From contig JBLIRF010000003.1 of NCBI GenBank assembly GCA_049472175.1, positions 1-32,240 of the forward strand: 32,240 bases of DNA, in the 5' to 3' direction. This DNA comes from Thermoplasmatota archaeon. Lineage in GTDB: Archaea > Thermoplasmatota > Penumbrarchaeia > Penumbrarchaeales > Penumbrarchaeaceae. The position numbers and the translations under genes are program-made. How positions within the stretch are numbered: position 1 is the stretch's first letter; each line of letters opens with the position of its first letter. Below are positions 10,274 through 32,199 of this stretch, piece after piece. The notes under the pieces are model-generated. The model was not told where the DNA came from, made no database searches, and saw nothing but the letters and a program-made list of their open reading frames with translations.

Positions 10274-11157
10274 ACCCCCTCCTCGGGACCTTCTACGGTA
10301 TCCTGGCAGCGGTTCTTCCCGTGATCTCGCTTATGGCCTGGACGTTCATATTCGCATTCTTCTTCCCGTATACAAGAAGGGAATTCAGGAAGGTGGTCCT
10401 CTTCAAGGGAACGGACAGGACCCTGCGATATATCATGATCGGAATGACCCCGATATTCTTCATGGCAGCGTCCATGGTCTCCGCAGGCCTTTCGATAATG
10501 ATGGAGGCCTTCTTCATGGTCTTCATCTTCCTATTTGACAGCTCGATGTCGGCATCCTCCCAGATACTGAGCCTGATGTCGGCCGGGCCCATCGAGGAGA
10601 CCATGAAACTTCTGACGGCAGGCCTCATATACATGACCATATACCTTATCTGGAGGAAAGCCCCAAAGAGCAGGCAGCTCGAGGTGAAGCGGGACCCGGT
10701 AAAGGACGGAATGATCATTGGATGCTTCGCAGGGGCCGCCTTCGGATTTTTGGAATCCATCCTCTATCTGTTCTCGAACTTCACCGTCCTGGCCGTACAG
10801 GGACCATCCTTCGGCTCTATCGACCCCATTCTGTGGAGGTTCGTCTTGGGTGTAATGGTCCATGCCCTCTATACTGGGATAGCCTCGGCAGGGCTCGGAA
10901 GAAGGACAATAACAGGAAAAGTGATCTACTCCTTCGTTTTCTTGACAGCATCCGTGGTACTTCACGCTCTCAATAACGGGATCCAGGGGTATATCATACT
11001 GGTCCTTGAAATGGACAACCCCACAGGATGGCTGATATCCGACGCACTGCAGACCCTTCTCATCCTGATCGGGATCACCATCTTCATCCTGGCATGGAAG
11101 ACATCCGACAGATCCTCTCCGAGGCCGCAAAATGATTTTATTCCAGGAAATTCGTAG
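10267..11157 (+). CDS. prsW: PrsW-family glutamic-type intramembrane protease
   Basis: Multi-pass hydrophobic protein with the four family motifs: GPIEETMK (EExxK), GAAFGFLES (FxxxE), VHALYTG and LHALNN. Overlaps the upstream gene by 7 nt. Confidence 0.88.
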   Translation: MVNPLLGTFYGILAAVLPVISLMAWTFIFAFFFPYTRREFRKVVLFKGTDRTLRYIMIGMTPIFFMAASMVSAGLSIMMEAFFMVFIFLFDSSMSASSQILSLMSAGPIEETMKLLTAGLIYMTIYLIWRKAPKSRQLEVKRDPVKDGMIIGCFAGAAFGFLESILYLFSNFTVLAVQGPSFGSIDPILWRFVLGVMVHALYTGIASAGLGRRTITGKVIYSFVFLTASVVLHALNNGIQGYIILVLEMDNPTGWLISDALQTLLILIGITIFILAWKTSDRSSPRPQNDFIPGNS

Positions 11158-11164
11158 GGAGCAC

Positions 11165-17605: not shown

Positions 17606-18511
17606 ATGGTGTCCAGAACGATATATCTCTTTTCCATTGGTATGAGTGTATTACTATGTTTCGCATTGGTCCCTTCCGGGGCACAAGCCGAGACGGAGAT
17701 CGATGTGGAAAGCCTGGCAGATGTTACTTTCACCAACTATCTCGAGTGGAGCATCTACTATCTCTTCATCTCACCTTCAGATAGCGAATATTATGGCGGT
17801 GATGTTATAGATACAACGGGAGCTACAATAATGGCTCCTTATGATTCATTGCTGCTCTACATGGTCCCGGGTGATTATGACATTCTGATCCTCGACGAGG
17901 ATTACGACATCTGGACCGGGGCATATTCCCTTGTTGACGGTTCGGAGATATACTTTGACGAGCTTTCATTGACCTACGAGGGACCCAGCGATGCGGGCGG
18001 ACTTATCAACATCGACGTATATGTGGACACGACCGCATCGGTTGATTATCTTTTCCTCTCACCAAATGATTCCGAGAGTTGGGGGGTTGACCTTCTTGGA
18101 ATGGGGTCACTTGACAACGGGGATGTACTTACGATAACTCTAATCGAATACGAGGAGACCGTAGACTACGACCTCCTGGCGATCTTCGATGACGGGGACC
18201 AGGTGACCGTGGCAGTGGAAGCCTACGATGGAGCGGAATTCTATCTTGTGGATACGGTCCCCGGTGATGATGATGTTTCGGACGACGATGATGTGGTCCC
18301 TGATGACGATGACGTGATCCCTGATGATGATGATATCGTCACGGACGATGATGATGAACTTCCTCCCGAGCAGCAGCCCGGAGGGGTCTCCGGGAACAAG
18401 GATGAAATCGAGGGTGAAGAGAACAAGGATTCGAGTGCCCTTGGTATTATTGCCATTATAACCACCATGACATTATTTATCGCCATAAGGATGTACAGAA
18501 GAAAGAACTGA
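17606..18511 (+). CDS. Acidic secreted protein with two tandem ~95-aa domains, Asp-rich linker and C-terminal TM
   Basis: Signal peptide; two similar units (YLFISPSDSEYYGGDVI...YDILILDED and YLFLSPNDSESWGVDLLG...YDLLAIFDDG); PDDDD linker; TM ALGIIAIITTMTLFIAI followed by RMYRRKN. Confidence 0.82.
   Translation: MVSRTIYLFSIGMSVLLCFALVPSGAQAETEIDVESLADVTFTNYLEWSIYYLFISPSDSEYYGGDVIDTTGATIMAPYDSLLLYMVPGDYDILILDEDYDIWTGAYSLVDGSEIYFDELSLTYEGPSDAGGLINIDVYVDTTASVDYLFLSPNDSESWGVDLLGMGSLDNGDVLTITLIEYEETVDYDLLAIFDDGDQVTVAVEAYDGAEFYLVDTVPGDDDVSDDDDVVPDDDDVIPDDDDIVTDDDDELPPEQQPGGVSGNKDEIEGEENKDSSALGIIAIITTMTLFIAIRMYRRKN
18260..18361 (+). repeat. Coding low-complexity tandem repeat (~21-nt unit, [P/S/T]DDDD[V/I/E]x)
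   Basis: Sequence reads ccc ggt gat gat gat gtt tcg gac gac gat gat gtg gtc cct gat gac gat gac gtg atc cct gat gat gat gat atc gtc acg gac gat gat gat gaa, about 5 units. Confidence 0.85.
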
Positions 18512-18560: not shown

Positions 18561-21500
18561 TTACGAAGCTTTCCTGGCGGCCATCATCTTGCGATGGAGC
18601 CTGTCCGCCTGAAGGCAGAACGCCTCGAAGTTCGCCTCTATTATCTGAGGGAAAGGTCCACCGTCGCTCTCGATGGACAGGAATGGCAGGTTCTTCGTGG
18701 TCCCTAGGACCTTTTTAACAACTTCATCATTGGTGATCTCGAGCTTCCCCTCGTCCGTCATTGTCTCGCTCAATATTGCCTCACATACCCTGCTCGGCAT
18801 GCACCCGAAAGGTCCTATCGATATCACCCCGCAGGAGTGGTCGACGATATCCGTCATCGACACTCCCGTGGTCAATATCGCTTCCCCGGCCATTTCCGGG
18901 GGGATGAGGTGTTTCGCATTTCCGATTATATGGTCCATATCGACCTCTTCGTAATGGTACAGGCCCGTGCTGGCAAAGAGCTTCTTGATCTCCCTCTCGT
19001 ACTTCCTCTGGATCGTGTTCTTTGCCTTGTTCTTCATTATCTCCGTCATGGGATGGGGGGTCACATTGTACCTGTTCTGGATCATCCAGTCAATGTAGTA
19101 CATCCACTCGTGGACCGGGCTGACCTTGGTAACGAAACCCTTATCGGCCAGCCTCTCGGTGATGTACCTTCTCGAAATCGCATCGTGCCGAACGAAGATC
19201 TCTCCCACAAGCGAAATGACCTTCGCATCCTTGATGGTCCTCTTTACAGGGACCTTCCTGAGCGCGGCCATGACCTTATCAAGGGTCTCCCTGATAACCT
19301 TCCAATCCTTGTTCACGGTCTTCACGGTGGACCTGAAACCGCCAAGCTCACCCCTGACACCGGTCCTCATAACAGCATCCAGAATCCTCTTCCATTCGCG
19401 TTCAAAGACCTTCAGGGCCTCCTCCTTGTCGACCGCATTTGCCATCAGCATGTTCCTGACATCCTCGAGGACGTCGGAGATTATCACAAGGAACCATATC
19501 TTCAGAAGCGCGGCATTTCCAAGGCCGCCGTACCCGTCCTCAGAGGTCAGTGCAAGGACGGCAACGTTCTCGATCTCAAGGTTTCGGACGAGAAGCTGCA
19601 GGTAGACATGATACTGCCCGAACCTGCATGGACCGTTCGCGGTTGGCATGAAGTAGACCATGACCTCGTCGGTGCCCGGGTCCCGGTACTTGAGGTACTT
19701 CAGCATGCTCCCGGTCGTGACCATCATGGGAAGGCATTCCTTGCCGCTCGTGTTGGACTTTCCGAGCTTCAGGACCTCTTCGTCGGCCGGTGGCAGCGCA
19801 AGGGAGTTCACACCGACGGATCTCAGGAACTGGGCTGCTCCTTCCGTTCCGAGATCACCCATGGAGGGGAAGACTATCCTGACCCTTGGATCGAACATGT
19901 CCATTTCCTCCCCGGCCGAGTTCGTCACGATCATCTTTTGGTTGACGATCTCGGCCTTTGCCTGCCTGAAGAGCTTGCTCTTCTTCAGGATCCGCTCCTG
20001 CTCCTTTAGCTGCCTGTAGCCTCTGAATATGTCGATGGCCGCCTCTATCCTCGTCTCGAGACCCGCATCAGCAGTGTGGCTGTCGAGCTCAAGGGTGAGC
20101 GAGGGCTTCATTCCCATGATGTCCCTGAAATATGTGATCACATATGAGTCGGGGCCGCAGCTGAAGTTGGTGATGAACGTTCCGAAGAGCTGAGGATGTT
20201 CCTCAACGATCCTGGCGGCCTTGAGGATCATCTGCCCCATGGACCAGTACATATGACCGTAGACGGGCTCCTCTTCGTACGGAAGGAAATCATAGGGGAT
20301 CACCATCAGTCCTCTTGATGCGATCTTCTGGGGAATTCCCATGTTGGCCTCTTTTACGAAAGCGTTGTAAGGTCTGCCGAATAGAACGATGGCCGTCTGT
20401 GAGGGGTCCTTTTCGAGATCTGCAAGGGCCTGGCGGCCAAGCTCCTTGAACTTTCGAAAGAGCGATCTCTGTTTCTCCAACGCCAGTTCGAAGGCAGAAT
20501 TCGCCTCCTTTGCCGAGTATCCAAGGTCCCTTGCTATCTTCACCATCGCATTCCTGGCCTTGTCGAGACCTCTCATCATGTTGAGCGTTTCCGTTATCAG
20601 CTTTACCCCGCTCCTCTCTATACGCTCCTTGAAGGTCTGTCTAAGATAGAACGGTTCGCACTGGGTCAATGGGCACGCCTGGGAAGCGTGAAAGCCTTTC
20701 TCCACATGGATCCCTCTGATGTGTGGAAGGAAGAGGTAGTCAGGACGCTTCTTCAGCAGGTTCATGAACATCCCGTGGGTGATCTCGGCCGGGTAGCAGA
20801 AGGGAGCACCTATCAGATCAGTTCCCTCCTCGTCCACCTCATCCGACAGGACAACCTTCATCCCGAGTTTCGTAAAGAAGGTGTGGAACATGGGATAATA
20901 TGTGGTCATCAGGTAGGTTCTGTTGATGCCGATGGTCTTTGCAGGATGTTTTGGGGCCTCCTTCGTGTCCGCGAATTCTGTGAAAACCGATCTCTCCCTG
21001 AGCGAGACGAGGTTCAGCTTCTCCAGATCATAGCTGACCGAATGCCTGAGATTGTAATATCGATTGCAGGCCCCTCCGAAGGGGTAGACCTTGTCTCCTA
21101 TCTTGATCCTGGCCACCTCGCATCTGAGGTCGCATTTCTCCTTTCCCCCCTGACAGGTGAATGGATCGAGGTATTCGACCTCCCTGTCCGCCAGCTCTGT
21201 AAGGTCGAAGGAGCTTTCCCTGATCAGTCCCCTCTCGATACGCTCCTTGATCGCAAGGGCAACACCGTAGGCTCCCGCCAGGTGTGGCATCGGAGGAACA
21301 ATGACCTCCTTGCCGGTCAAAGATGCCATCGCAATGGGAACTGCCCTGTTCAGACAGACCCCTCCCTGCATGAACACCTTCTCTCCAACCGGTCTGCTCC
21401 CCTTGACCCGGTTGGTGTAATTGATACAGATGGAATAGACCAGACCAGCAACGATGTCCTCCCTGTCCATACCTTCGTGGGATGCTCTCTTGATGTCGCT

Positions 21501-22919
21501 GCTTATGAACGCTGCGCACTGGTCATTGAAATTGGGCGGGTCCTGCCCTCTCATCGCCACATCCGCGATGTCCTTCATTTCAATCCCAAGGGTCTCCTTG
21601 GCGGATTCCTCCAGGAACGATCCTGTCCCCGCCGAGCATGCCTCGTTCATCGCGTAGTCAGATGGGACACCGTTGGTGATGTAGGTGTATTTTGCGTCCT
21701 GGCCCCCTATCTCGAAGATGGTATCGACATCCCTGTCGAAGTGAACGGCGGCTGTCGCATGGGCGATTATCTCATTAAGTATCCCGTCCGTCATCGCATG
21801 GAGCCCAGCTATCTGTCTGCCTGAGCCGCAAACCCCGAGACCTACAATGTTCAGAGGCATATTGACCTGATCTGCAAGTGCCGAGTAACATTTTCTGGAA
21901 GCACCGACGGGGTCACCCAGGGTCCTGAGGTAAATGGACCCAAGTACCGCATTGTCCTCGGTCCTGAGCAAAACGGCCTTCGTCGTCGTTGATCCAACGT
22001 CCAGACCTATGATGCAGCGGTCATCCTTCCTGGCTTCCTGAAGGTTCATATCCTTGAACCTGACACGGTCCTCGAAAAGGGACAATCTCGGAAGGTGATC
22101 GAAGGACGACCGGTCCTTGAAGAATAGCCTGTCGATACCCTGGTAAGGTTTCGTGTCATGCTTGAGCGCCCATAATGCTGCTCCCAGGGCTTCGAAATAG
22201 GGAGCCGTATCCGGAATGTACAGACCATCTATCTCTTTCCTCAGGAAACCGGTCATGAGGTGGTTCTGGGAGGTGCCGCCCACCATCATTATGTCCTTTT
22301 TGGGTATCTTCTTCAGAAGCTCTATTACCTTGTGCCCCATCATCTCGCACAGACCCGAAACGACCTGCCCCTTCGGGACCCCCTTGTTGGTGGCATGGGT
22401 GCAGTCGCTCTTGCAGAAGACCGTGCATCTGCTCGAGAGCCTGTGGGGCTCCGCTTCCTTTCCCTGCTCCATGGCCTCCTGGATCGTAAGGCCCATCCTC
22501 CTGATCTGCTGGAGAAAGAACTCCCCCGTTCCGGAAGCACATTTGCTCCCGGTGTGAACATCGATTATCTTGCCGTCATCATCAAGTACATAGACCATGA
22601 AGGTCTCGCCGCCTGCACTCACGATGGCATTGTATCTCCTTCCTTCCCTGTTCTCCCACTCAAGGGCATGTTCCACCGCCTCGGGTTCGCTGATGGAAGA
22701 GAGGTTGACCAACTTGCGGAACCTTCTCCCTGTCACCGCGACCCTGTTGAACGATGACATGTCAACCGACCTGATGTTCCCCGCAAGCACACTCTTAGGG
22801 TCCCCTTCATGAGGTTCCAATATGACGCTCTCGACCTTGGGTCTCGATCCCTTTCCGCTGTCAGAGATCTCGACCAAGGTGACCGTGGACCCGCCCAGAC
22901 ATATTCCCAATGCTCTCAT
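18561..22919 (-). CDS. Multidomain acyl-CoA dehydratase activase-related Fe-S protein (two BadF/BadG/BcrA/BcrD ASKHA domains, DUF2229-like and dehydratase-like C-terminal domains)
   Basis: Domain 1: GICLGGST, SKCASGTGEF, RCTVFCKSD. Domain 2: GLDVGSTTTK, EIGGQDAK, NEACSAGTGSFLEE, QCAAFISSD. Then a C-x6-C-x3-C...GGAC cluster, FCYP, NFSCGPDS, KECLP, GPCRFGQY and GPFGCMP. Start uncertain (ATG 22919 or GTG 23009). Confidence 0.9.
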   Translation of the reverse strand: MRALGICLGGSTVTLVEISDSGKGSRPKVESVILEPHEGDPKSVLAGNIRSVDMSSFNRVAVTGRRFRKLVNLSSISEPEAVEHALEWENREGRRYNAIVSAGGETFMVYVLDDDGKIIDVHTGSKCASGTGEFFLQQIRRMGLTIQEAMEQGKEAEPHRLSSRCTVFCKSDCTHATNKGVPKGQVVSGLCEMMGHKVIELLKKIPKKDIMMVGGTSQNHLMTGFLRKEIDGLYIPDTAPYFEALGAALWALKHDTKPYQGIDRLFFKDRSSFDHLPRLSLFEDRVRFKDMNLQEARKDDRCIIGLDVGSTTTKAVLLRTEDNAVLGSIYLRTLGDPVGASRKCYSALADQVNMPLNIVGLGVCGSGRQIAGLHAMTDGILNEIIAHATAAVHFDRDVDTIFEIGGQDAKYTYITNGVPSDYAMNEACSAGTGSFLEESAKETLGIEMKDIADVAMRGQDPPNFNDQCAAFISSDIKRASHEGMDREDIVAGLVYSICINYTNRVKGSRPVGEKVFMQGGVCLNRAVPIAMASLTGKEVIVPPMPHLAGAYGVALAIKERIERGLIRESSFDLTELADREVEYLDPFTCQGGKEKCDLRCEVARIKIGDKVYPFGGACNRYYNLRHSVSYDLEKLNLVSLRERSVFTEFADTKEAPKHPAKTIGINRTYLMTTYYPMFHTFFTKLGMKVVLSDEVDEEGTDLIGAPFCYPAEITHGMFMNLLKKRPDYLFLPHIRGIHVEKGFHASQACPLTQCEPFYLRQTFKERIERSGVKLITETLNMMRGLDKARNAMVKIARDLGYSAKEANSAFELALEKQRSLFRKFKELGRQALADLEKDPSQTAIVLFGRPYNAFVKEANMGIPQKIASRGLMVIPYDFLPYEEEPVYGHMYWSMGQMILKAARIVEEHPQLFGTFITNFSCGPDSYVITYFRDIMGMKPSLTLELDSHTADAGLETRIEAAIDIFRGYRQLKEQERILKKSKLFRQAKAEIVNQKMIVTNSAGEEMDMFDPRVRIVFPSMGDLGTEGAAQFLRSVGVNSLALPPADEEVLKLGKSNTSGKECLPMMVTTGSMLKYLKYRDPGTDEVMVYFMPTANGPCRFGQYHVYLQLLVRNLEIENVAVLALTSEDGYGGLGNAALLKIWFLVIISDVLEDVRNMLMANAVDKEEALKVFEREWKRILDAVMRTGVRGELGGFRSTVKTVNKDWKVIRETLDKVMAALRKVPVKRTIKDAKVISLVGEIFVRHDAISRRYITERLADKGFVTKVSPVHEWMYYIDWMIQNRYNVTPHPMTEIMKNKAKNTIQRKYEREIKKLFASTGLYHYEEVDMDHIIGNAKHLIPPEMAGEAILTTGVSMTDIVDHSCGVISIGPFGCMPSRVCEAILSETMTDEGKLEITNDEVVKKVLGTTKNLPFLSIESDGGPFPQIIEANFEAFCLQADRLHRKMMAARKAS

Positions 22920-23066
22920 CTTGCTAACATCCTGTCCATTCTTCTTAACACCAGGCAGCGGATGGGACCTTCCCGTGGAGGGATCCCGCAGCACCGAACA
23001 AGGGGCCACTTCGTTGTTTCCTTGACCTTTGGACTTGCTAACTAAATAAGGACCTCCGTGGTGCTG

Positions 23067-23098
23067 TCGGACCGGATAGTCCGAATTCTTATATTAAA
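23067..23098 (-). promoter_or_regulatory. Internal promoter (TATA) with adjacent palindrome upstream of the large activase
   Basis: TTTAATATAAG on the minus strand (23098-23088), followed by the inverted repeat TCGGAC-N6-GTCCGA (23067-23084). Confidence 0.5.
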
Positions 23099-23100
23099 CC

Positions 23101-23874
23101 TCACTGTCGAGCTTTGTTGGGGTCCTTTACGTGTCTTGCGCCCAGGGCGCCTATGGCCCCCATGTACTGGGACCTTTCAGGCACGAGCACTTCCACGGAG
23201 AGGAAGTCACTTATCGTCATGACGAGCCCCGAGCATCGGGACACCCCTCCAGTGAACACTATTGTATCACACGGGAACATCCTGAGAAGGGGGCGGACCC
23301 TCTCGTAGACCGAGTATATGACACCCTCTGCAAGCCTTTCCTTTGTCGCCCCCTCCACCATCAGTGAGATGAGCTCTGTCTCCGTGAAGACCGAGCATAT
23401 CGATTCCAGTATCTTACCCTCCCCTTTGTAGGACCCGAGCTCGGCCACGCTCATTCCAAGCATGGCGGACATCTTCTCCAGGAACCTTCCGGTACCGGCA
23501 GCACATTTATCGTTCATGTGGAAATCCTTGATGCCCTTTTTTTCAACCCTAACGACCTTGAAATCCTGTCCTCCCATGTCAAGAAGTGTGAAGTCCTCGA
23601 GGCCTGTGCTCTTCATGACACCCAGTGTATGGGCCCTGATCTCCGGAATAGGTCTTGCGCTGGGTATCATCTTTCTACCGTATCCGGTCGATACTACATC
23701 CAACCCAACCAGGTTTTCCGCGAACTTCCCATATATGAAACGGGAAGTGTCCATTATCGAGGTCATAAGACGGTCATCCTTGCGGAATGCGAACTTGGTG
23801 GATGTTGAACCTGCGTCCACGCCCAGCCTCTGCCCTTTCTCCATTTCTTTCAGGAAGGAAAGTTCCGGTATCAT
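23101..23874 (-). CDS. 2-hydroxyacyl-CoA dehydratase activase (HgdC/HadI/FldI-like ASKHA [4Fe-4S] ATPase)
   Basis: GVDAGSTSTK, STGYGR, EIRAH, DMGGQDFK, MNDKCAAGTGRFLE, SICSVFTETE, FTGGV. ATGA overlap with the upstream gene. Confidence 0.92.
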   Translation of the reverse strand: MIPELSFLKEMEKGQRLGVDAGSTSTKFAFRKDDRLMTSIMDTSRFIYGKFAENLVGLDVVSTGYGRKMIPSARPIPEIRAHTLGVMKSTGLEDFTLLDMGGQDFKVVRVEKKGIKDFHMNDKCAAGTGRFLEKMSAMLGMSVAELGSYKGEGKILESICSVFTETELISLMVEGATKERLAEGVIYSVYERVRPLLRMFPCDTIVFTGGVSRCSGLVMTISDFLSVEVLVPERSQYMGAIGALGARHVKDPNKARQ

Positions 23875-24857
23875 CCACCCTCCTCCAGAACATCGATGAA
23901 CGACTCGAGGCGTATCAGGGTCCTCTCGTCCATTGGACCGGGCAGGTTCCCCTCAAGGGTCAGGATCGGCACATCCAGCTTATGGCGGAATATGATGTCA
24001 TCTATCTGCCTGTGGCAGAAGGATTGTACATAATGTACGAGCCCTTCTATGCGCCGTCTTTTTACCTCTGCTTTGATATCCTCGACCCTTCCTGCTATAT
24101 CGTAAGGATAGGTGTAATCGAGATACCTTCCTATCCAATCACCGGTCTTCGAGGGCATGGCGAACTGCCTCTGAACCTCGAAGAGAACGGTCCTTGCCCC
24201 CGAACCCTCGATCCTTGTAAAGATATCGGTGATTATCGGAGGTACCCCTATGTACCCCAGCCTCACGCCCTCATCCTGAGGACTGTTCGTCCTGCCTCTC
24301 TCGAGTATCGACCTCAAATGCCTCTCCCATCTTTCCGGATCGGAGCACAGGTCGGAGGTGGAGACAAGGGAAAAATGACAGTCCTCGGCGGAAATGCTGA
24401 GATCTCTCCATCTCTGCTCATCTATGCTAAGGGCGATGTTCCTGAGCTCCTGAAGTCTGCCCGATGTCTGCTCCGCCTCCTCCATGGTGCATCCGAGGAG
24501 GCTGCACAAATCCTCGATCTCGGCGATGATGGCATCCCTTGAGCGGTCGTAGGGATAGGAGAAAGGGTGAACGGGTTTTCCCTCGCTCCCAAGGGTCTCG
24601 AGAAGAGACTCTGTGTTCGAGCAGTCGCCCCGTACAACGCCGACCACCAGGTCCACATCTGCCGATGCGGTGTAGAGCCCTTTTATCCATGTGCAGATGT
24701 TCCGTGGGAAACCTCTTACCTGGGCTTCCTCGACGTGCTGGATGGGGCTTTTGGAATCCATGAAGAAATTGTTCAGGTCGACCGGTACCACTGAAGCTGC
24801 CACCAGCGGCTCCAGAGGTATCGTTGTTGTTATTCCGATCCTACGATTTCTTGCCAT
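23871..24857 (-). CDS. 2-hydroxyacyl-CoA dehydratase family (HgdA/B, 'D-component') Fe-S protein, single short subunit
   Basis: IGITTTIPLE.LVAA...PVDL N-terminus, GFPRNICTWIKG, GDCSNT, IEGLVHYVQSFCHRQ, VPILTLEG and IRLESFIDVL C-terminus typical of the family; sits next to an activase. Confidence 0.85.
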   Translation of the reverse strand: MARNRRIGITTTIPLEPLVAASVVPVDLNNFFMDSKSPIQHVEEAQVRGFPRNICTWIKGLYTASADVDLVVGVVRGDCSNTESLLETLGSEGKPVHPFSYPYDRSRDAIIAEIEDLCSLLGCTMEEAEQTSGRLQELRNIALSIDEQRWRDLSISAEDCHFSLVSTSDLCSDPERWERHLRSILERGRTNSPQDEGVRLGYIGVPPIITDIFTRIEGSGARTVLFEVQRQFAMPSKTGDWIGRYLDYTYPYDIAGRVEDIKAEVKRRRIEGLVHYVQSFCHRQIDDIIFRHKLDVPILTLEGNLPGPMDERTLIRLESFIDVLEEGG

Positions 24858-25455
24858 GGGTCTCTTTGTAACCGATGTCGAAGGCCTTAAGGTTTACTTC
24901 AAGGGACCTGTGTGGAACGATCTTCTTGATGGCGGACATCATCTCCTCGTAACTGAAGGGCAGAACATCCGTGCCCATAAGAGCCCCAAGCATTACAACG
25001 TTCGTCACCCTTTCGTTCCCGGCGGTCCTTGCATGGGCCTTGGCGGAGACCTGGAACACGCACTCGAGACGCTTTCTGATCTCCTCGACGACGGTATCCG
25101 GCTCCGGATAGCTCCTTCCTCCGGAACTGACGGAAACCGGTCTGACCGGGTCCGTGGACATGACCACTATAGTGTCCTTGGTCAGCTGGAACCTCGCCCT
25201 GTAGACCTCCAGGGGTTCGAAACCCACCATGACGGTCACGTCCTGTCCGAAGGGTAGAGGGGATATCGTCTCCCCCAGCCGTATCGTGGTCTGAACAACG
25301 CCCCCTCTCTGGGCCATTCCATGGATCTCGGATATTATTATGGATATCCCCTTCTTTACAGCAGCAGCCCCGATTATCCTGGACACCGTGAGGGCTCCCT
25401 GGCCGCCTACCCCCACTATCTGGATCGTGCAGGTATCCCTGTTGATCTGCCCCAT
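24841..25455 (-). CDS. iorB: Indolepyruvate:ferredoxin oxidoreductase beta subunit
   Basis: IVGVGGQG, SEIHGMAQRGGVV, FEPLE.YR, NVVMLGAL, NLKAFDIG. ATG 25455 follows GGAGGTGA and lies 1 nt after the iorA stop. Confidence 0.93.
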   Translation of the reverse strand: MGQINRDTCTIQIVGVGGQGALTVSRIIGAAAVKKGISIIISEIHGMAQRGGVVQTTIRLGETISPLPFGQDVTVMVGFEPLEVYRARFQLTKDTIVVMSTDPVRPVSVSSGGRSYPEPDTVVEEIRKRLECVFQVSAKAHARTAGNERVTNVVMLGALMGTDVLPFSYEEMMSAIKKIVPHRSLEVNLKAFDIGYKETHGKKS

Positions 25456-25456
25456 T

Positions 25457-27370
25457 TCATTCACCTCCCTTCTCTTTCCCGATGGGACCCATCGCCCCGA
25501 AGGGGCAGACCTGGGTGCATACACCGCATGACCAGCACAGGTCCGGATCGATGTAGTGTTCATCCCCGATCTTGTAGAATGCCGGACAGGCGAAGATCTT
25601 CGTGCAAGTATCACATCTGGTGCATTTGTCCTGGTATACCTGATATTTGGTCCTGACCACGTTCCTCTTCCTCAGCTCCCTCTCGAGCTTGAGGGCGCAG
25701 GGAGATCTCGTAATAACGACGGAAACCCCGTCATGGGCAAGGGCTTCCTCGAAGGCCTTCTGTGTCTCCTTCACGTTCAGAGGGTTGACCGTCCTCACGA
25801 ATTCGACCCCCACACCCCTGCAGAGCTTTTCGATGCTGATGGCGGGTGCTTCATCCCCCATTCCGTCCACCGGGAGTCCGGGATGGGGCTGGTGCCCGGT
25901 CATGGCGGTGGTGGCGTTGTCCATCACGTTCAACACGAACCTGTGCTTGTTGTGTACAGCGTTGACAAGAGGTGCTATCCCTGCATGGAAGAAGGTCGAA
26001 TCCCCGATGAACGCTATCACTGGCTCGTCCACGACCCGTGAGAGTCCGCCTGCCGATCCGCCGGAGCTTCCCATACAGATGAGAAGATCTCCCGTGGACT
26101 GAGGGGGCTGTATCCCGAGCGTATAACACCCGATATCGTTGGGATACACCGCCTTCCCCTTGGTCGCCCTCCTTACGGCAAGGAAGGTGGCTCTGTGGGG
26201 GCAGCCGGCACATAGAACGGGTGGACGGGGTGGCTCAGGAAGTGTTTCCCAATCTATGGTCTCCTTTTCTGGAAGGTCGATCTTCATACCTTCACCTTCC
26301 AGCGCTGACACTATCCCTCTTAGAACAATATCCGGGTTGTATTCCATCGGTCTCGGGAAATGACCGTCCCTCTTTCCCAGAACGGTTGTGGGAACATCCC
26401 TTTCCTTGAGAACGACCTTCACGTGTTCCTCGAGATACATCTCTCCTTCTTCCACGGTCAATATCATATCGCATTCGGAGGAGAACTCGGATATCATATC
26501 GTCTGGCAGAGGGCTCGTCATTCCGAGCTTGAGCACCCTTGCCTCTACACCTAGATCGATATTATCAAGCACCTCCATTACATAATTGTAAGATACACCG
26601 GAGGTGATGATGCCAAGCTTCAAGGCCCCGGCAGTGTTCATCTTCTTCGGGGCGATGACCCGGTTGAAAGGCGAAACCTCAGATTCCTTTTCCATCTCCG
26701 GAATTATCTCAAGAAGGGCGAGATGCCTCTTCCTTGCGTTGGCGGGTACGGTCACGAACCTGCTGAGGTCCTTTTCGAAATGGACCCTTCCGGAGGGCTT
26801 TCGTATCTTTCCAAGTTCGATGACGCCCCTGACATGGTTCAATCTCGTGGTGGTTCTGAAGAGGACGGGCATCTGGAACTTCTCCGACAGCTCGAAGGCG
26901 TAGTGTATCATCTGCCTTGCTTCCTCGGGAGATGACGGCTCCACCATGGGTACGCCGGACATCTTCGCATAGAAGCGGTTGTCCTGCTCGTTCTGCGATG
27001 AATGACAGCTCGGGTCGTCCGCGGAAAGCACGACATATCCGCCTCTTACTCCAGTATATGCAAGGGTCATGAAGGCGTCAGCGGCCACATTCAGACCAAC
27101 ATGTTTCATGAAGGAGAAGGCACGAACCCCGGCAACGGCTGCGGCCGCTGCGGTCTCGAACGCGACCTTCTCGTTCGTCGAGAACTCGAAGTAGATACCC
27201 GCCTCCTTTGCAACCCTATGCATTGTGTTTCCGATCTCCGATGATGGTGTACCGGGGTATGTGGCGGCAACGGTCACTCCCGCCTCGATGGCGGCGCGTG
27301 CTATTGCCTCGTTACCGAGGGCCAACACCTTCTTTCCAGGCTTATCTTCCATTATGGGGTGCATGTTCAC
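25457..27370 (-). CDS. iorA: Indolepyruvate:ferredoxin oxidoreductase alpha subunit
   Basis: LGNEAIAR, YPGTPSSEI, NEKVA, MKHVGLNVAAD, SSQNEQDNR, LCAGCPHR, DIGCYTLG, IGDSTFFHAG..DN..TAMTGHQPHP (TPP-binding), and C-terminal 2x[4Fe-4S] motifs CTRCDTC..CP / CWSCGVC..VCP. Confidence 0.96.
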   Translation of the reverse strand: MNMHPIMEDKPGKKVLALGNEAIARAAIEAGVTVAATYPGTPSSEIGNTMHRVAKEAGIYFEFSTNEKVAFETAAAAAVAGVRAFSFMKHVGLNVAADAFMTLAYTGVRGGYVVLSADDPSCHSSQNEQDNRFYAKMSGVPMVEPSSPEEARQMIHYAFELSEKFQMPVLFRTTTRLNHVRGVIELGKIRKPSGRVHFEKDLSRFVTVPANARKRHLALLEIIPEMEKESEVSPFNRVIAPKKMNTAGALKLGIITSGVSYNYVMEVLDNIDLGVEARVLKLGMTSPLPDDMISEFSSECDMILTVEEGEMYLEEHVKVVLKERDVPTTVLGKRDGHFPRPMEYNPDIVLRGIVSALEGEGMKIDLPEKETIDWETLPEPPRPPVLCAGCPHRATFLAVRRATKGKAVYPNDIGCYTLGIQPPQSTGDLLICMGSSGGSAGGLSRVVDEPVIAFIGDSTFFHAGIAPLVNAVHNKHRFVLNVMDNATTAMTGHQPHPGLPVDGMGDEAPAISIEKLCRGVGVEFVRTVNPLNVKETQKAFEEALAHDGVSVVITRSPCALKLERELRKRNVVRTKYQVYQDKCTRCDTCTKIFACPAFYKIGDEHYIDPDLCWSCGVCTQVCPFGAMGPIGKEKGGE

Positions 27371-27420
27371 ATCAACTCCCTGAGAGCGTGAGTCCTTTAC
27401 CCGTCATATTACTGGGGCCT

Positions 27421-28338
27421 TCACCTTTCGACACCCGCTGCCCTCTCCTTCGTGATCTTCTCGAGGAAAAGGAGATCCTCCCATTTCCGGTCAAGATCGA
27501 CCTCTATCTCATCAATAAGCGACTGGGGCATATGCTTGAACCTGCCCTGCTTCAGCAGATAATCCTTGAGAGGGGTCTTTTTGGGTTTCATATTGATCGT
27601 ATATTCACCGTTCTCTATCTCGTAAAGGGCGAATGCCCTTGAGGACAGCGCTTCCTTGCATATCTTCACCGTCTGTCCCGGGTCCATCTTCCACCCGGTC
27701 GGACAGGGGGAGTATATCTGGATGAACTTTACCCCTTTGATCGATAGGGCTTTTTTCACCTTTCGTATCAGGTCCTCCGGATAGGCGACCGCTGCGGTCG
27801 CAATGTATGGGATACCGTGGGCGGCCATGATACCAACCATGTTCTTCTTTGGTGATTTCTCCCAATCCCCGTGCGTTCCGACCGGTGTTGTCGTGGTCCA
27901 TGCCCCGACAGGTGTCGATCCGGACCTCTGGATGCCCGTGTTCATGTATGCTTCGTTGTCGTACATGATATAGAGTACATCGTCTCCCCTGTCGGCCGCC
28001 CCGGAAAGGGCCTGGATCCCGATGTCCGCGGTTCCACCGTCCCCCGCGAAACCGATCACATTGATGTCCGTCTTGCCGAGAGCATCAAGTGCGGCCTTGA
28101 TGCCGGAGATGGACGCTCCCGTGGTCTCGAATGCTGTATAGAGTTCGGGTATCTGGAGGCAGGTGTTGGGCCAGACTCCTGGCATGACAGCCCAGCAGCA
28201 TGCCGGAATGGAGATGATGGTCCTCCTTCCCGCAGCCTTGAGGACGTACCTCATCGCCATCGTGCCTCCGCATCCCAGGCATCCCATATGTCCGGGAGAC
28301 ATCAACTCGTCTTCTGGTATCGTGAGCTTGATCATCAT
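27421..28338 (-). CDS. vorB: 2-oxoacid:ferredoxin oxidoreductase beta subunit, 2-ketoisovalerate (VOR) type
   Basis: GH.GCLGCG, GDGG..DIG, YDNEAYMNTGIQRS, SPCPTGW. RYVLKA.G..TI..IPACC and TAFETTGA.ISGI resemble Pyrococcus VorB rather than PorB (from memory). ATG 28338 follows AGGAGGTGA. Confidence 0.85.
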   Translation of the reverse strand: MMIKLTIPEDELMSPGHMGCLGCGGTMAMRYVLKAAGRRTIISIPACCWAVMPGVWPNTCLQIPELYTAFETTGASISGIKAALDALGKTDINVIGFAGDGGTADIGIQALSGAADRGDDVLYIMYDNEAYMNTGIQRSGSTPVGAWTTTTPVGTHGDWEKSPKKNMVGIMAAHGIPYIATAAVAYPEDLIRKVKKALSIKGVKFIQIYSPCPTGWKMDPGQTVKICKEALSSRAFALYEIENGEYTINMKPKKTPLKDYLLKQGRFKHMPQSLIDEIEVDLDRKWEDLLFLEKITKERAAGVER

Positions 28339-28346
28339 ATCACCTC

Positions 28347-29549
28347 CTAAAGCTCCACCTCCGGAGTGTTCCCGTCGAGCAGACCCCACCAGTGGACCTC
28401 TCCCTCATGATCATATCCGCTCTTCTCCACGTTCATGAGGTCCCTGAATATCCCCTTTACGTGCTTAGTCCTCACATCCCTTCCACCGACCCCGATTATG
28501 TAGTTCTTGGTAACCGGTCTGTTCCCGTGATTGTATATCTGTCCGTTGGTCTCGTTGTAGAGGGGGCCGCCTCTCCCAAAGGTGAAGGTGCGGTCGAGGA
28601 CCCCGATCGCATGGGCCCGGTCAGCAAGATACCTGACCTCCTCGAACGGGAAAGGTCTGAATACCCTGAGCCTGGCGACCCCGACCTTGTAGCCCTCCTT
28701 CCTCATCTCGTCCACTGCGTCCTTCGCGGTGGACATCATGGTCCCTGCACCGAACAGAATGAACTCGGCATCCTCGCATCTGTACATATCCATCATTCCA
28801 CCGTACGAGCGCCCGGTCAGCTCTTTCCATTCCCTGTCAGCCTTTTTAATGACCTCCCTTGCCTTGTCCATGCTCCGTGCCATGTGTGCCCTGAACTCCA
28901 TGTACTGGGGCGGCATGATGAAGGAACCGAAGCCCTTGGGGTCGTCCACGTCGAGCTTGATAGGGGTCTTGAACGGTGGAAGGTATCCATCGACCATTTC
29001 CTGGTCAGGAATGTCCACGGGTTCATTTGTGTGTGACAGATAAAAAGCATCCTGGTTGATCATTGCCGGGAGCAGAATATCATTGTTCTCGGCAACCTTG
29101 TATGCCATTATCACGGTATCCAGGATCTCCTGGTTGTTCTCGCACCAGAACTGCATGACCCCGGTGTCCCTCTCTGCCATCGCATCCTGATGGTCGGCAT
29201 AGACGGACCAGGGCGGTGCCATGGCCCTGTTGACGTTGACAAGTACGCATGGGGTCCTCGCACCTGCAGCCCACATCAGCACCTCATGCATCAGGGCAAG
29301 TCCGTGAGCGGATGTCGCCGTGAATGCCCTTGCTCCGGTGTTCGAGGCTGCAATGGTGGCCGCCATGGCGGAGTGCTCGGATTCCACCTTCACGAACCTG
29401 GCGTCCCATCTTCCCTCCGATATGAGATCGGCTATCCTCTCGACTATTGTGGTCTGGGGTGTGATCGGGTAAGCTGCAACCACCTGAGCTCTGGCGAGCA
29501 TTGCACCGTAGGCTGTCGCTTTGTTGCCGGCCATAAGTTCCTTTACCAT
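28347..29549 (-). CDS. vorA: 2-oxoacid:ferredoxin oxidoreductase alpha subunit, VOR type
   Basis: AAYPITPQT, VESEHSAM, TATSA.GLALMHE, NRAMAPPWSV (VorA-like), RVFRPFP. RBS GAGGAGGTGA. Confidence 0.85.
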   Translation of the reverse strand: MVKELMAGNKATAYGAMLARAQVVAAYPITPQTTIVERIADLISEGRWDARFVKVESEHSAMAATIAASNTGARAFTATSAHGLALMHEVLMWAAGARTPCVLVNVNRAMAPPWSVYADHQDAMAERDTGVMQFWCENNQEILDTVIMAYKVAENNDILLPAMINQDAFYLSHTNEPVDIPDQEMVDGYLPPFKTPIKLDVDDPKGFGSFIMPPQYMEFRAHMARSMDKAREVIKKADREWKELTGRSYGGMMDMYRCEDAEFILFGAGTMMSTAKDAVDEMRKEGYKVGVARLRVFRPFPFEEVRYLADRAHAIGVLDRTFTFGRGGPLYNETNGQIYNHGNRPVTKNYIIGVGGRDVRTKHVKGIFRDLMNVEKSGYDHEGEVHWWGLLDGNTPEVEL

Positions 29550-29561
29550 ACTTTCACCTCC

Positions 29562-29831
29562 TCACTTGCTCTCAGGGACCATCTGTATGCATTTCACGGG
29601 GCATTCATTGGCACAGATGCCGCAGCCCTTGCAGTGGTCATAATCGAATTTGGGCCCGTTCTCAGTAATGATCACGGATACATCCGGGCAGTACTTCCAG
29701 CAGATCCAGCACTTTATGCACTTGGATCGATCGCAGACGGGTCTGAACGCCCTCCAGCCTCCGGTCTTGATAACCGAACTGTCCTGGACGTTCAATGGTG
29801 TTGGCGGTATTTCATCCAGTGTCTGCGGCAT
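29562..29831 (-). CDS. vorD: 2-oxoacid:ferredoxin oxidoreductase delta subunit (2x[4Fe-4S])
   Basis: KTGGWRAFRP, CIKCWICWKYCPD, DYDHCKGCGICANECP. Confidence 0.88.
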   Translation of the reverse strand: MPQTLDEIPPTPLNVQDSSVIKTGGWRAFRPVCDRSKCIKCWICWKYCPDVSVIITENGPKFDYDHCKGCGICANECPVKCIQMVPESK

Positions 29832-29832
29832 C

Positions 29833-30393
29833 TCATCTGCCTCCTGCCATTTTTACAGCCTCGTATGCTTCCTTGGCCGCCTTTGCATTCCTCTCGGCAT
29901 ACAGCGGCAGGGTCAGTATCGCCTGCTCGACGGACTCTATCGAGACAAGTCCGGATGCCTTGGCAAATGCCCCTACTATCCCGGTGTTGACGATGGGCTG
30001 GACCTTGCTCCCGAGCTTGTTTTCAAGGGCTATCTTTGTAGCATTCACGGTGGCCACATTGTCGAAGCCTATCTGCTTTGCGATCTTTTCAGGCTCCTCC
30101 CCCGTATTGACCAGGACCATCCCGGTCTCCTTGAGACCCTCGGTCACGTTCACTGCCTGGATCAGTGAAGCCTCAAGGACAACGACATAATCGGGGGTAT
30201 AGATCATGGACTTGTCCCTGATGTGTCCGTCATCGATCTTGGTGAAGGCGGTCACAGGAGCACCTCTTCTCTCGACCCCGAAGTAAGGGAAGGCCTGAAC
30301 GTCCTTCCCCTCTCGGAAAGCCGCATCTGCCAGGACCTGGGAAGCGACGACCGCTCCCTGTCCACCTCGTCCATGGAACCTTATCTGTATCAT
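29833..30393 (-). CDS. porG: 2-oxoacid:ferredoxin oxidoreductase gamma subunit (PorG/VorG)
   Basis: [31 protein letters not shown] 30393 follows GGAGGAG. Confidence 0.92.
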
Positions 30394-30537
30394 TCTACTC
30401 CTCCATTTCATCGAGTGTGAAAACCTTTCTGCAGGATGCACCCCGGAGATGCCAATACGCGTTCCCCGGCAATTCGGCAACAAAGGACCTACCCGGATAT
30501 CTTGAAGGTAGGGGCTTTTCTGTATGATGAGGGCACA

Positions 30538-30595
30538 TTTTAAGGTTATGGTCAGGTAAAAGGACCCATTATATATATATTCAAAGTTGATGGGT
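30538..30595 (-). promoter_or_regulatory. Promoter region of the vor-ior operon
   Basis: (TA)n tract at ~30570-30581 flanked by the inverted repeat ACCCAT (30564-30569) / ATGGGT (30590-30595). A second TATA-like CCTTAAAT lies at ~30545-30538. Confidence 0.45.
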
Positions 30596-30600
30596 TCTCT

Positions 30601-32199
30601 TCATTCCTTTTTCAGATCGAACTTGCTGATGCCCATCTCCCGCAGCCTGAACTTCTGAATCTTGCCCGATTGGGTCATCGGGAACTCATCGGTGAACCAT
30701 ACATATCTCGGAACCTTGAAGTTCGCAAGGTTCACCTTGCAGTAGTTTATGATATCGTCTGCGTTCGCTTTCTCTCCTTCGGTGAGCTTGATGACGGCCA
30801 TTCCCACCTCTCCGAACCTGGGATCGGGAACACCCACAACAGATACGTTCTCTACCGCTTTGAGCTTGAAGAGGAACTCCTCTATCTCTCTGGGGTATAC
30901 GTTGAAGCCACCGCATATGTACATGTCCTTCTTCCTGCCGACTATCCTGAAATACCCCCTCTCATCCATGATCGCAAGGTCCCCTGAATGGAGGAACCCC
31001 TCATGGTCGATGGCCTCTGCTGTCTCTGCAGGTTTCTTGAAGTAGCCTTTCATCACGTTGTAACCACGGACCACAAGTTCACCTGTCCTGCCGGGTGGAA
31101 GTACGTTGTTGTCATCGTCCACTATCCTGACCTCTTGCTCGGGGAGGGCTTTTCCGACCGTCTCCACCCTGTCCTTGATGTTGTCGGTCAAGCTGGTCAT
31201 GGTGATGACGGGGGAAGACTCCGTCAGACCATATGCGATCACTATATTGGCTCCCATATTCTCGGTGGCACCCTTCATCACCTCCACAGGACACGGTGCT
31301 CCGGCCATGACCCCTGTCCGTACGCTCCCGAGGTCGTAACTCCTCTTCTTCATGGCCTCAAGGTAGCCGATGAACATCGTCGGGACGCCATGCACAATCG
31401 AGATCCCGAACATCTCCATGTACATCAGACCCTGCTCTGCGTCGAAAGATGGCATCGGTACGATACCGCTCGATGCAGATACGCACGCAGATATTCCAAT
31501 AACGCACCCGAAGCAGTGAAAGAAGGGGACCGCTATCAGCGTGACGTCGTCGACATTCTGTTCCATCACATGGGCTATCTGCTCCGCATTCTTCGATATG
31601 TTGAGATTTGTAAGCATGGCACCTTTCGGTTCTCCCGTTGTACCTGAGGTGTACAGAATGAAGACCGCATCGTCCTCATCGATGTCCTTTTCGATATTCT
31701 CAAGCACCCCGCTCTCCCGGTGATCGGCCCCCAGCTCCATCAGGCTTTCATAGGAGTCCATCCCGTCAGTCATCCGCACTCCAAGGACCACGATCCTCCT
31801 CAACGCTGGTGTCCTGCCCCGGAGATCGTCAAGGATCTCGATATAGTCTATCTTGAGGAAATCGGAGGTCATGACCAGACAGGTTGCCTCGGAGTTGTTC
31901 ATTATGTAGTCCACTTCCTTGGCCTTGTATCTGGTGTTCATCGGGACTACGACTCCCCCCATTCTGGCGATCCCGAAGAACGCTACGATCCATTCGGGAT
32001 AGTTCGGCATGTAAAGAGCTATCCGGTCACCTTTACGTATACCCATCTTCAGCAGTCCGTTGGCGAACCTTGATGCCATATCGTCGAGCTTTTTATAGGT
32101 TATTGCCCGGTCCTCGTAGAAGATCGCGATCCTTTCAGGGTTTTCTTCCGTGGCTTTTCTCAGAAGTCCACTGAGGGTGTATCTTCGGTTCATCGTCAT
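30601..32199 (-). CDS. AMP-forming acyl-CoA synthetase (ANL superfamily, fatty acyl-CoA ligase-like)
   Basis: ILYTSGTTGEPKG (P-loop), VPFFHCFG, AYGLTESSP, GFLHSGDL, GRKKDM..GGFNVYPREIE, SGKIQK (catalytic Lys). Confidence 0.93.
   Translation of the reverse strand: MTMNRRYTLSGLLRKATEENPERIAIFYEDRAITYKKLDDMASRFANGLLKMGIRKGDRIALYMPNYPEWIVAFFGIARMGGVVVPMNTRYKAKEVDYIMNNSEATCLVMTSDFLKIDYIEILDDLRGRTPALRRIVVLGVRMTDGMDSYESLMELGADHRESGVLENIEKDIDEDDAVFILYTSGTTGEPKGAMLTNLNISKNAEQIAHVMEQNVDDVTLIAVPFFHCFGCVIGISACVSASSGIVPMPSFDAEQGLMYMEMFGISIVHGVPTMFIGYLEAMKKRSYDLGSVRTGVMAGAPCPVEVMKGATENMGANIVIAYGLTESSPVITMTSLTDNIKDRVETVGKALPEQEVRIVDDDNNVLPPGRTGELVVRGYNVMKGYFKKPAETAEAIDHEGFLHSGDLAIMDERGYFRIVGRKKDMYICGGFNVYPREIEEFLFKLKAVENVSVVGVPDPRFGEVGMAVIKLTEGEKANADDIINYCKVNLANFKVPRYVWFTDEFPMTQSGKIQKFRLREMGISKFDLKKE

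Follow-up and report, generated by a model that had tools for sequence, protein, structure and literature searches.

A vor-ior gene cluster with a three-cysteine HGD-D family protein and its activase in Thermoplasmatota archaea

Described archerase systems and the gene pair behind iorAB

The BCR/HAD/DCCP superfamily, which comprises benzoyl-CoA reductases (BCR), 2-hydroxyacyl-CoA dehydratases (HAD) and double-cubane cluster proteins (DCCP), catalyses reductions that rank among the most difficult in biology, and the substrate is known for only a few of its clades. In the dehydratase HadBC, two paralogous subunits of approximately 375–410 amino acids (aa) are accompanied by a separate activase of the ASKHA type, HadI. 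Class I benzoyl-CoA reductases (BzdNOPQ, MbdONPQ) consist of two HGD-D and two ATPase subunits, and in DCCP the catalytic component is the product of one gene and is served by a dedicated ATPase reductase, DCCP-R. Here we describe a gene pair related to these systems, which encodes a single-subunit HGD-D family Fe-S protein of 328 aa and an activase of 257 aa, and which lies directly behind the iorAB genes of indolepyruvate:ferredoxin oxidoreductase (IOR) in a Thermoplasmatota archaeon (GenBank assembly GCA_049472175.1, contig JBLIRF010000003.1). The window, by which we mean the whole stretch of 32,240 nt that was analysed, is a contig from a metagenome-assembled genome of 1.30 Mb and 62% completeness, and its best protein and DNA matches are to Thermoplasmatota. 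Below, the 328-aa HGD-D protein is provisionally called hgdX and the 257-aa activase actX.

Listing of the open reading frames (ORFs) together with Pfam and NCBIfam scans revealed ten minus-strand ORFs in a row at positions 18561–32199, in the order AMP-forming acyl-CoA ligase, vorGDAB, iorAB, hgdX, actX and a gene for a 1452-aa protein. According to the ORF coordinates, iorA and iorB are 1 nt apart, the start of hgdX lies inside the end of iorB with an overlap of 17 nt, and hgdX and actX overlap by 4 nt (ATGA). The ten consecutive genes and the three junction distances are thus as claimed in a preliminary description of this DNA, and the gene identities and the tight coupling of the pair to iorAB were likewise upheld by the Pfam and NCBIfam matches and the overlaps. 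The remaining intergenic gaps are 8–50 nt, except on either side of the unit that contains the pair. The gap between the ligase gene and vorG is approximately 207 nt and contains ATATATATATAA, an AT-rich box after the ligase stop codon. Further, 181 nt (91 nt with the longest ORF) separate the activase stop codon from the ATG of the 1452-aa gene, in a gap that begins with TTTAATATAA. These two AT boxes are candidate archaeal promoters; the ligase gene is probably a transcription unit of its own, and the 1452-aa gene is probably a separate gene with its own promoter. Because the gaps and AT boxes set off the ligase and the 1452-aa gene, the tightly coupled unit is vorGDAB-iorAB-hgdX-actX, which is predicted to be an eight-gene operon. 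Seven sequencing runs of DNA or unknown type, from two studies, cover part of the stretch, with no RNA run among them. Note that only 41 nt of the contig remain upstream of the ligase start (window end, 32240), so that any genes beyond are not visible in the window.

The 328-aa protein (23871–24857, minus strand) matched PF06050 with 91.5 bits against a cut-off of 28.4. In the NCBIfam scan it matched no dehydratase model, and its sole match was NF040772 (double_cubane) at 21.1 bits. A homologue search of a 5.8-billion-protein collection yielded 3665 protein clusters (90% identity) of similar length. The nearest homologues (85–57% identity) belonged to Thermoplasmatota and were followed without a gap by bacterial proteins of approximately 45–50% identity; at least 596 species genomes contained relatives. 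In 24 aligned archaeal and bacterial homologues with a mean column identity of 48%, C55, C79 and C281 were the only invariant cysteines, and many polar residues were invariant between archaeal and bacterial members, which are 42–50% identical. The sequences point to a clade that is large, widely distributed and conserved between archaea and bacteria. We found no description of this clade or of its ior linkage in open-access papers and bioRxiv. Clusters I–IV of the superfamily are described in PMC7317905, and the excerpts of that paper do not place a three-Cys group of approximately 330 aa among them. In the excerpted proteome study of Syntrophomonas wolfei (PMC3582634), the protein reported is a 47-kDa COG1775 protein, not this 36-kDa type.

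When the alignment profile of the 328-aa protein was compared with solved structures, the matches were weak, the best being DCCP (7YYL/6ENO, E 1.2e-12), followed by HadC (3O3M_B, E 9.5e-8) and BzdN (E 1e-3). The AlphaFold (AF2) model of the protein had a pLDDT of 93.3 and a pTM of 0.91, and Foldseek matched it about equally to DCCP, BzdN/O, HadB/C and MbdN/O (E 4e-14 to 1e-9, TM 0.70–0.81, 12–19% identity). Because the profile matches are weak and the fold matches nearly equal, the 7-Cys motif is absent, no NCBIfam model exceeded its cut-off and there is one gene, the 328-aa protein is within the BCR/HAD/DCCP superfamily and outside its characterised families.

The likenesses to the described systems are therefore partial. 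The dehydratases HadBC/HadI (PDB 3O3M/N/O, 4EHT), HgdAB/HgdC and FldBC/FldI have the same fold as the 328-aa protein (Foldseek E ~1e-12, TM 0.78–0.79), and a separate ASKHA activase is encoded adjacent to it as in HadBC/HadI. The 328-aa protein further shows the three-Cys pattern described for HadB/HadC in excerpts of PMC7317905. By analogy with these subunits, the three cysteines would fit one [4Fe-4S] cluster with a free Fe. Unlike HadBC, however, the window has one gene instead of two for paralogous subunits, the identity is 12–16%, and no family III CoA-transferase was found in the genome or in five near-complete relatives. The preliminary description had taken the protein for a dehydratase of the HadBC/FldBC type; this assignment was abandoned, since there is one gene and not an alpha/beta pair, no dehydratase model was matched and the profile is nearer to DCCP than to HadC. 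DCCP/DCCP-R (PDB 6ENO, 7YYL) gave the best match in both the profile and the Foldseek comparison (E 4.3e-14 in the latter), and shares with the pair the single-gene catalytic component that has its own ATPase reductase. In contrast to the three invariant cysteines here, DCCP has a 7-Cys motif with six ligands of its [8Fe-9S] cluster (PMC7317905, excerpts). Further, the 328-aa protein is approximately 90 residues shorter than DCCP and its NF040772 score is far below the cut-off of 350. Class I benzoyl-CoA reductases (PDB 8S02, 9GAI) have the same Fe-S subunit fold (E ~1e-12, TM 0.70–0.81) and ATP-driven electron transfer, which is predicted for the 328-aa pair as well. Unlike these reductases, the pair has one HGD-D and one ATPase component, its profile match to BzdN is poor and the BzdQ, BcrA and BcrD models scored far below their cut-offs.

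Linkage to ior and vor in archaea and bacteria

The gene neighbourhoods of the 328-aa protein were scanned in one genome per prokaryotic species. Among 599 candidate stretches, 596 were confirmed, and the best 80 loci (11 from Thermoplasmatota and 69 from bacteria) were kept and compared with the window's ten proteins by tblastn (E <= 1e-8). The HGD-D gene adjoined iorB-iorA-vorBADG in all 11 Thermoplasmatota loci, being co-directional in six and convergent in five. With added relatives, the co-directional set comprised 15 genomes of the window's taxonomic family, the window counted, and the adjacency to iorB held in 20 of the 20 Thermoplasmatota genomes where it was visible (15 co-directional, 5 convergent). 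In most co-directional genomes, the HGD-D gene overlapped iorB by 11–17 nt and the activase gene by 1–4 nt. In the five convergent loci (L009–L013), the proteins were approximately 50% identical to those of the window, and the 3' end of the HGD-D gene overlapped iorB by approximately 20 nt (for example, 3737–3756 in L009). The convergent lineage has small assemblies (1.0–1.3 Mb in the four searched), and the gene on the other side of the HGD-D gene differed from locus to locus.

The preliminary description had made its proposal depend on linkage of the pair to ior and vor in relatives. This linkage was confirmed within Thermoplasmatota, in the 20 genomes above, and failed outside them: tblastn detected ior or vor near the HGD-D gene in none of the 69 bacterial loci, in which the orthologs are 42–50% identical. 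A tree of 85 sequences was computed by a quick maximum-likelihood method, with a distant long-branch archaeal paralogue as the root. In this tree, the 20 Thermoplasmatota orthologs formed one clade (SH-aLRT 98), which branched among bacterial sequences and contained one subclade of the 14 co-directional rows (100) and another of the five convergent rows (99).

The 257-aa protein (23101–23874, minus strand) was identified as an ASKHA-type activase (archerase ATPase) by its match to TIGR00241 (175.3 against a cut-off of 125.4). The HGD-D domain of the 328-aa clade was fused to a BcrAD_BadFG domain in eight of the nine longer homologues, and the clade therefore works with an activase. An activase was present within 2.6 kb in 42 of the 69 bacterial loci, while 5 of the other 27 lacked a downstream flank. 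Among archaeal loci of the window's family with a downstream flank, the activase was adjacent in all but one genome (G008). The convergent Thermoplasmatota loci had no activase nearby, and each of the four genomes searched possessed one unlinked activase. A different fusion was seen in P0244 (672 aa), in which a homologue of the 328-aa protein is joined not to an activase but to a domain of the OMP-decarboxylase family (PF00215). Only this one sequence was seen, its contig is 3 kb long, and faulty gene calling could account for the fusion.

Co-occurrence was examined in the window's genome and 60 relatives (61 genomes). IorA exceeded the model cut-off in 50 of them, and the 328-aa protein was found at E <= 1e-30 in 24, namely in 19 of the 23 genomes of the window's family, in the window's genome and in others; in three of the non-family genomes it was distant (29–36% identity). 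Several genomes that are 94–99% complete possessed IOR without the HGD-D/activase pair. A search of the rest of the genome for the missing pathway genes, which the preliminary description had suggested, was successful in part. The window's own genome has one D-2-hydroxyacid dehydrogenase, and no family III CoA-transferase, acyl-CoA dehydrogenase or electron transfer flavoprotein (ETF) was found in its 62%-complete assembly. Five near-complete relatives (95–97% completeness) all had four to five acyl-CoA dehydrogenases each as well as ETF, and relatives also had thiolases and GctAB-like proteins, whereas the family III CoA-transferase was found in none of the five.

Upstream of the cluster, six relatives with sufficient flank share a block that encodes, going upstream, two DUF35 proteins, two thiolase-like proteins, the two subunits of a family I CoA-transferase and a divergent acyl-CoA dehydrogenase. 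The genes of the window cluster thus make up the downstream half of a larger acyl-CoA gene island, approximately 17 kb in length. The block occupies positions 2936–9645 in L089, occurs also in L087, L088, L090, L091 and L093, and lies beyond the end of the window's contig at 32240. The transferase subunits matched the glutaconate CoA-transferase of Acidaminococcus over their full length (1POI_A, E 7.5e-44; 1POI_B, E 1.5e-52). In seven genomes, a GctB-like gene shared a contig with the HGD-D gene and lay 10–12 kb upstream of it; a GctB-like gene was present in 19 of the 23 genomes of the window's family. When 24 ortholog-bearing genomes from outside the family (5 Thermoplasmatota and 19 bacteria) were searched, the GctB-like gene was found in three, none of them among the five Thermoplasmatota.

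In the hydroxyglutarate operon of Acidaminococcus fermentans, the gene order is gctAB, hgdCAB. The GctA/GctB-like genes of the relatives resemble this arrangement in lying in one co-directional block with the HGD-D/activase pair. Unlike in A. fermentans, however, the transferase genes are approximately 10 kb away, with thiolase, DUF35, ligase, vor and ior genes between, the HGD-D gene is single and divergent, and outside the family the ortholog and Gct-like genes show no co-occurrence. Of all the observations, the Gct-like island speaks most strongly for the earlier idea of a Stickland-like module.

Each of the five near-complete relatives had exactly two PF06050 genes, one for the 328-aa type and one, unlinked, for a protein of approximately 440 aa. 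The latter is DCCP in one relative (G011; NF040772, 354.9 against a cut-off of 350), and was assigned by size and PF06050 score in the other four. The DCCP locus of G011 (3316–7373 in L102) also encodes a NapH-like polyferredoxin and two different activase paralogues. A DCCP-type locus was likewise present in the window's genome (1474–3322 in L083, contig C29), where it is truncated at the end of the contig and adjoins the gene for the alpha subunit of an ADP-forming acyl-CoA synthetase. Neither a canonical two-subunit dehydratase nor a benzoyl-CoA reductase was found in the window's genome or the five near-complete relatives.

Explanations of the association

We tentatively favour, at somewhat less than an even chance, a lineage-specific operon fusion by which a two-component archerase of an orphan clade came to be co-expressed with VOR and IOR. 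Reduced ferredoxin produced by VOR and IOR would reduce the [4Fe-4S] cluster of the activase dimer, and the activase would use ATP hydrolysis to drive one electron from there to the [4Fe-4S] cluster of the 328-aa protein. Since this cluster would be held by three cysteines, one Fe would be free. The 328-aa protein, probably a homodimer, would bind a carbonyl or thioester oxygen on this Fe, and the bound substrate would undergo ketyl-radical chemistry, either elimination or reduction. The most plausible substrate in this archaeal family is a CoA thioester that belongs to the surrounding acyl-CoA island, whose acyl-CoA pool VOR and IOR would feed. The pair would have entered an ancestor of Thermoplasmatota once and remained beside iorB. 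The functional tie would consist of co-expression and a shared ferredoxin/acyl-CoA pool and not of an obligatory partnership with IOR, because IorA is present in 50 of the 61 genomes as compared with 24 for the HGD-D protein, and because ior and vor were detected near none of the 69 bacterial HGD-D genes. A complex prediction of IorA with the 328-aa protein gave scores of 0.00 and 0.00, which amount to no verdict and are not evidence either way.

Several points weigh against this explanation. In G029, which belongs to a different family within the class, the ortholog pair (47% identity) is unlinked to ior and has Ras-like GTPase genes and unannotated genes as neighbours. Further, the recurrent neighbours of the bacterial orthologs are housekeeping genes, namely those for glutamate racemase (murI, 27 loci), GerM (22), RNase PH (22) and Ham1/RdgB (20), with a metallophosphoesterase in 16 loci and smaller groups with metH/MTHFR, queD and a QueE-like radical SAM protein, rtcA, recG and ABC-F. 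The conserved function may therefore be unrelated to acyl-CoA or amino acids. Neither a CoA-transferase nor an acyl-CoA dehydrogenase was among the scanned recurrent bacterial neighbour-gene clusters, and neighbours such as queD, the QueE-like protein, murI, ABC-F and rtcA point to no consistent pathway. Because the archaeal orthologs form one clade, the ior linkage may descend from a single event, and may thus have been inherited from it without repeated selection; the 20 linked genomes cannot be counted as independent of one another. Finally, co-transcription was deduced from the gene overlaps and the lack of intergenic space, and we infer the cluster type and the oligomeric state.

The pair could instead be a minimal, homomeric (R)-2-hydroxyacyl-CoA dehydratase that acts in a Stickland-like fermentation together with VOR/IOR, the ligase, the Gct-like transferase and acyl-CoA dehydrogenase/ETF. 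The HGD-D fold, the three cysteines, the dedicated activase and the tight coupling to iorAB speak for such an enzyme, as do the D-2-hydroxyacid dehydrogenase of the window's own genome, the GctB-like gene upstream of the pair in seven relatives and the matches of GctA and GctB to 1POI. An acyl-CoA dehydrogenase gene is located beside the Gct-like genes, and ETF and acyl-CoA dehydrogenases occur in all near-complete relatives; the fld cluster of Clostridium sporogenes also contains an AMP-forming ligase. However, a dehydratase of this kind would be expected to have two HGD-D genes where one is present, and the other HGD-D gene in the near-complete relatives encodes DCCP in G011, by scan, and a putative DCCP in the other four, by size and PF06050 score. 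No dehydratase equivalog model was matched, and the profile ranked DCCP (E 1e-12) above HadC (E 1e-7). A family III CoA-transferase was found neither in the 62%-complete genome nor in the five near-complete relatives, the GctB-like gene is rare in ortholog-bearing genomes of other families, and approximately 9 kb of other genes lie between the Gct-like genes and the pair. Moreover, the bacterial neighbours that recur in the scan are housekeeping and not fermentation genes. We regard a dehydratase as unlikely, if a serious candidate. With respect to the Stickland-like module of the preliminary description, the gene identities, the coupling and the Gct-like, acyl-CoA dehydrogenase and ETF genes of the relatives speak for it, whereas the noncanonical HGD-D protein and the failure to find a family III transferase do not.

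It is rather improbable, in our judgement, that the pair is a conserved housekeeping enzyme of many anaerobic bacteria and that its position behind iorB is a historical accident. The identity between archaeal and bacterial members with their many invariant polar residues, and the bacterial neighbours (murI, gerM, rph, rdgB, the metallophosphoesterase gene, queD, the QueE-like gene, recG and ABC-F), are consistent with such a role. So are the single archaeal clade, the one archaeal lineage that is unlinked, and the convergent group, which cannot share a transcript with iorB. In contrast, the start/stop overlaps with iorB have been retained across several genera, and the adjacency has outlasted an inversion and divergence to approximately 50% identity, while the other flank of the HGD-D gene is variable in the five convergent loci.

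The preliminary description had also proposed an ATP-driven low-potential electron system serving the oxidoreductases. In this case the pair would inject electrons that enable IOR and VOR to carboxylate arylacetyl-CoA or branched acyl-CoA reductively to 2-oxoacids for amino-acid synthesis. Translational coupling to iorB and an upstream AMP-forming ligase, which activates free acids, would suit this role, and archerase systems deliver very low-potential electrons (PMC7317905, excerpts). However, IOR is far more frequent than the pair in the 61 genomes and is present without it in the several 94–99% complete genomes, and the pair is linked to an oxoacid:ferredoxin oxidoreductase in none of the bacterial loci. 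In addition, the excerpts of PMC7317905 name no superfamily member that is a pure electron carrier to another enzyme. The co-occurrence counts thus argue against the proposal, no positive evidence for it emerged, and we consider it very improbable.

There is, in our estimate, a slim chance that the single-subunit three-Cys clade is a new functional class of ATP-driven Fe-S radical enzyme and that in Thermoplasmatota it works directly with IOR and VOR, by novel ketyl-radical chemistry on their arylacetyl-CoA or branched acyl-CoA products or by ATP-boosted reductive carboxylation. In that case archaeal amino-acid metabolism would include an energy-coupled module, encoded by this operon, that had not been recognised before. 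As regards the favoured operon fusion, the Thermoplasmatota operon is the only context found here that hints at a testable substrate pool, the bacterial context being nearly uninformative. The ior-linked operon would thus place a widespread uncharacterised enzyme family in a testable context for the first time, and not in a textbook dehydratase pathway. The substrate, if found, would refine metabolic models of protein-degrading sediment archaea.

Other genes of the cluster and the window

The VOR and IOR genes are all encoded on the minus strand. The four vor genes specify a four-subunit 2-oxoacid:ferredoxin oxidoreductase, named here after the 2-ketoisovalerate type (VOR) as opposed to POR. 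The gamma subunit gene vorG (29833–30393, longest ORF to 30483; 186 aa) starts at an ATG behind GGAGG, and its product matched PF01558 (125.9 bits) and TIGR02175 (212.3 against a cut-off of 81.1). The delta subunit VorD (29562–29831, 89 aa) is ferredoxin-like with 2x[4Fe-4S] and matched TIGR02179 (99.4 against 60.05) and Fer4 families. The alpha subunit VorA (28347–29549, 400 aa) matched POR_N (235.3 bits) and PFOR_II; the VOR-alpha and PorA models scored 474 and 470 bits, both below cut-off, and do not discriminate VOR from POR. The thiamine pyrophosphate-binding beta subunit VorB (27421–28338, longest ORF to 28389; 305 aa, starting at Met18 of a 322-aa ORF) just passed NF008818 (3-methyl-2-oxobutanoate dehydrogenase beta) with 407.6 against 405, whereas PorB, at 376.1, was below 405. 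The IOR alpha subunit IorA (25457–27370, 635–637 aa) scored 800.8 with TIGR03336 (cut-off 650.9). The IOR beta subunit IorB (24841–25455, 204 aa) matched PF01558 (115.8 bits), and the IOR-beta models ranked best for it but below cut-off (NF005323, 199.4 of 238). Thus, an alpha subunit above the TIGR03336 cut-off is followed directly downstream by a POR-gamma-like beta subunit, as is characteristic of IorAB. The ligase gene (30601–32199, minus strand; 532 aa) encodes an AMP-forming acyl-CoA ligase that matched PF00501 (AMP-binding, 330.7 bits) and PF13193; its best NCBIfam models, PRK12583 and PRK06187, were both below cut-off. A ligase gene upstream of vorG was also found in L005, L006, L008, L088, L089 and L093.

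The last gene of the cluster (18561–22919, longest ORF to 23009; minus strand) encodes a 1452-aa fusion that matched PF01869 twice and PF09989. Two BcrAD_BadFG domains lie within residues ~1–585 and DUF2229 at residues 692–908 of the 1482-aa ORF, followed by approximately 570 further residues. The second of the "two activases" of the preliminary description is thus not a simple activase. Matches in PDB were limited to residues 98–562 and were all activators. Its homologues are likewise fusions and match it in length; the closest, from Thermoplasmatota, share 64–85% identity and the next 46–52%, those with a named source being from Desulfobacterales, Deltaproteobacteria or Syntrophales. Desulfatibacillum alkenivorans belongs to Desulfobacterales. 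DUF2229 matches in control genomes were found in Thermotoga maritima, Lactococcus lactis and Bacteroides thetaiotaomicron.

Plasmalogen synthase PlsA is encoded by a single gene of 4.2–4.9 kb for approximately 1415–1640 aa, with the order Act1-Act2-Red1-Red2 (PMC12838417, excerpts). Glycerol ester reductase, Ger, has been verified in T. maritima and D. alkenivorans and has homologues in some archaea, and the archaeal groups named in the excerpts of that paper do not include Thermoplasmatota (PMC13159169). Like PlsA and Ger, the 1452-aa protein combines two BcrAD_BadFG domains and DUF2229 in one polypeptide, which is a likeness of architecture. From this architecture it would therefore be a self-contained PlsA/Ger-like enzyme and not the activase of its neighbour. 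Unlike PlsA and Ger, its host is an archaeon, which makes ether lipids by another route. The model of its C-terminal 853 aa had a pLDDT of 63.3 and a pTM of 0.54, and no Foldseek match at E <= 0.001 was obtained with it. Since 15 of the top 20 Foldseek rows were BzdN/O, DCCP, HadB/C or MbdN/O (E 2e-3 to 2e-2), this region might be BCR/HAD-like, which we take as a weak lead. Profile comparison of the 328-aa alignment with the C-terminal 853 aa showed no similarity (probability 1.9%).

The possibility that the 1452-aa protein is a second activase of the IOR-linked enzyme was rejected: it has a reductase-like half of its own, a promoter-like box lies upstream of its gene, and the gene follows the activase gene in only 5 of the 11 loci with a downstream flank. 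A paralogous fusion of approximately 1420 aa (open frame 1423) with two activase domains and DUF2229 (243.6 bits) is encoded on another contig of the genome (C70, ~4900–8700; L086), and this archaeon therefore has two genes of PlsA/Ger-like architecture. The presence of this architecture raises the question of whether these archaea modify ester lipids.

Elsewhere in the window, the minus strand at 14143–15942 encodes a 599-aa ABC-F ATPase that matched the "ribosomal protection-like ABC-F family protein" model with 420.5 bits (cut-off 380). Archaea seldom possess ABC-F proteins. Loci of Cloacimonadota (L042, L072, L076) likewise have an ABC-F gene in the neighbourhood of the HGD-D gene. Three large proteins encoded on the plus strand (1–1977, 3174–7430 and 11132–14128), the first of which runs off the contig start, contain fn3, PKD, Big_9, DUF7948, SBBP and DUF4625 domains and are probably secreted or surface-located. 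A further plus-strand gene (17606–18511) encodes a 301-aa protein without a Pfam match, which has a signal-like N-terminal segment, long Asp-rich acidic repeats and a hydrophobic C-terminal anchor, and is convergent with the 1452-aa gene.

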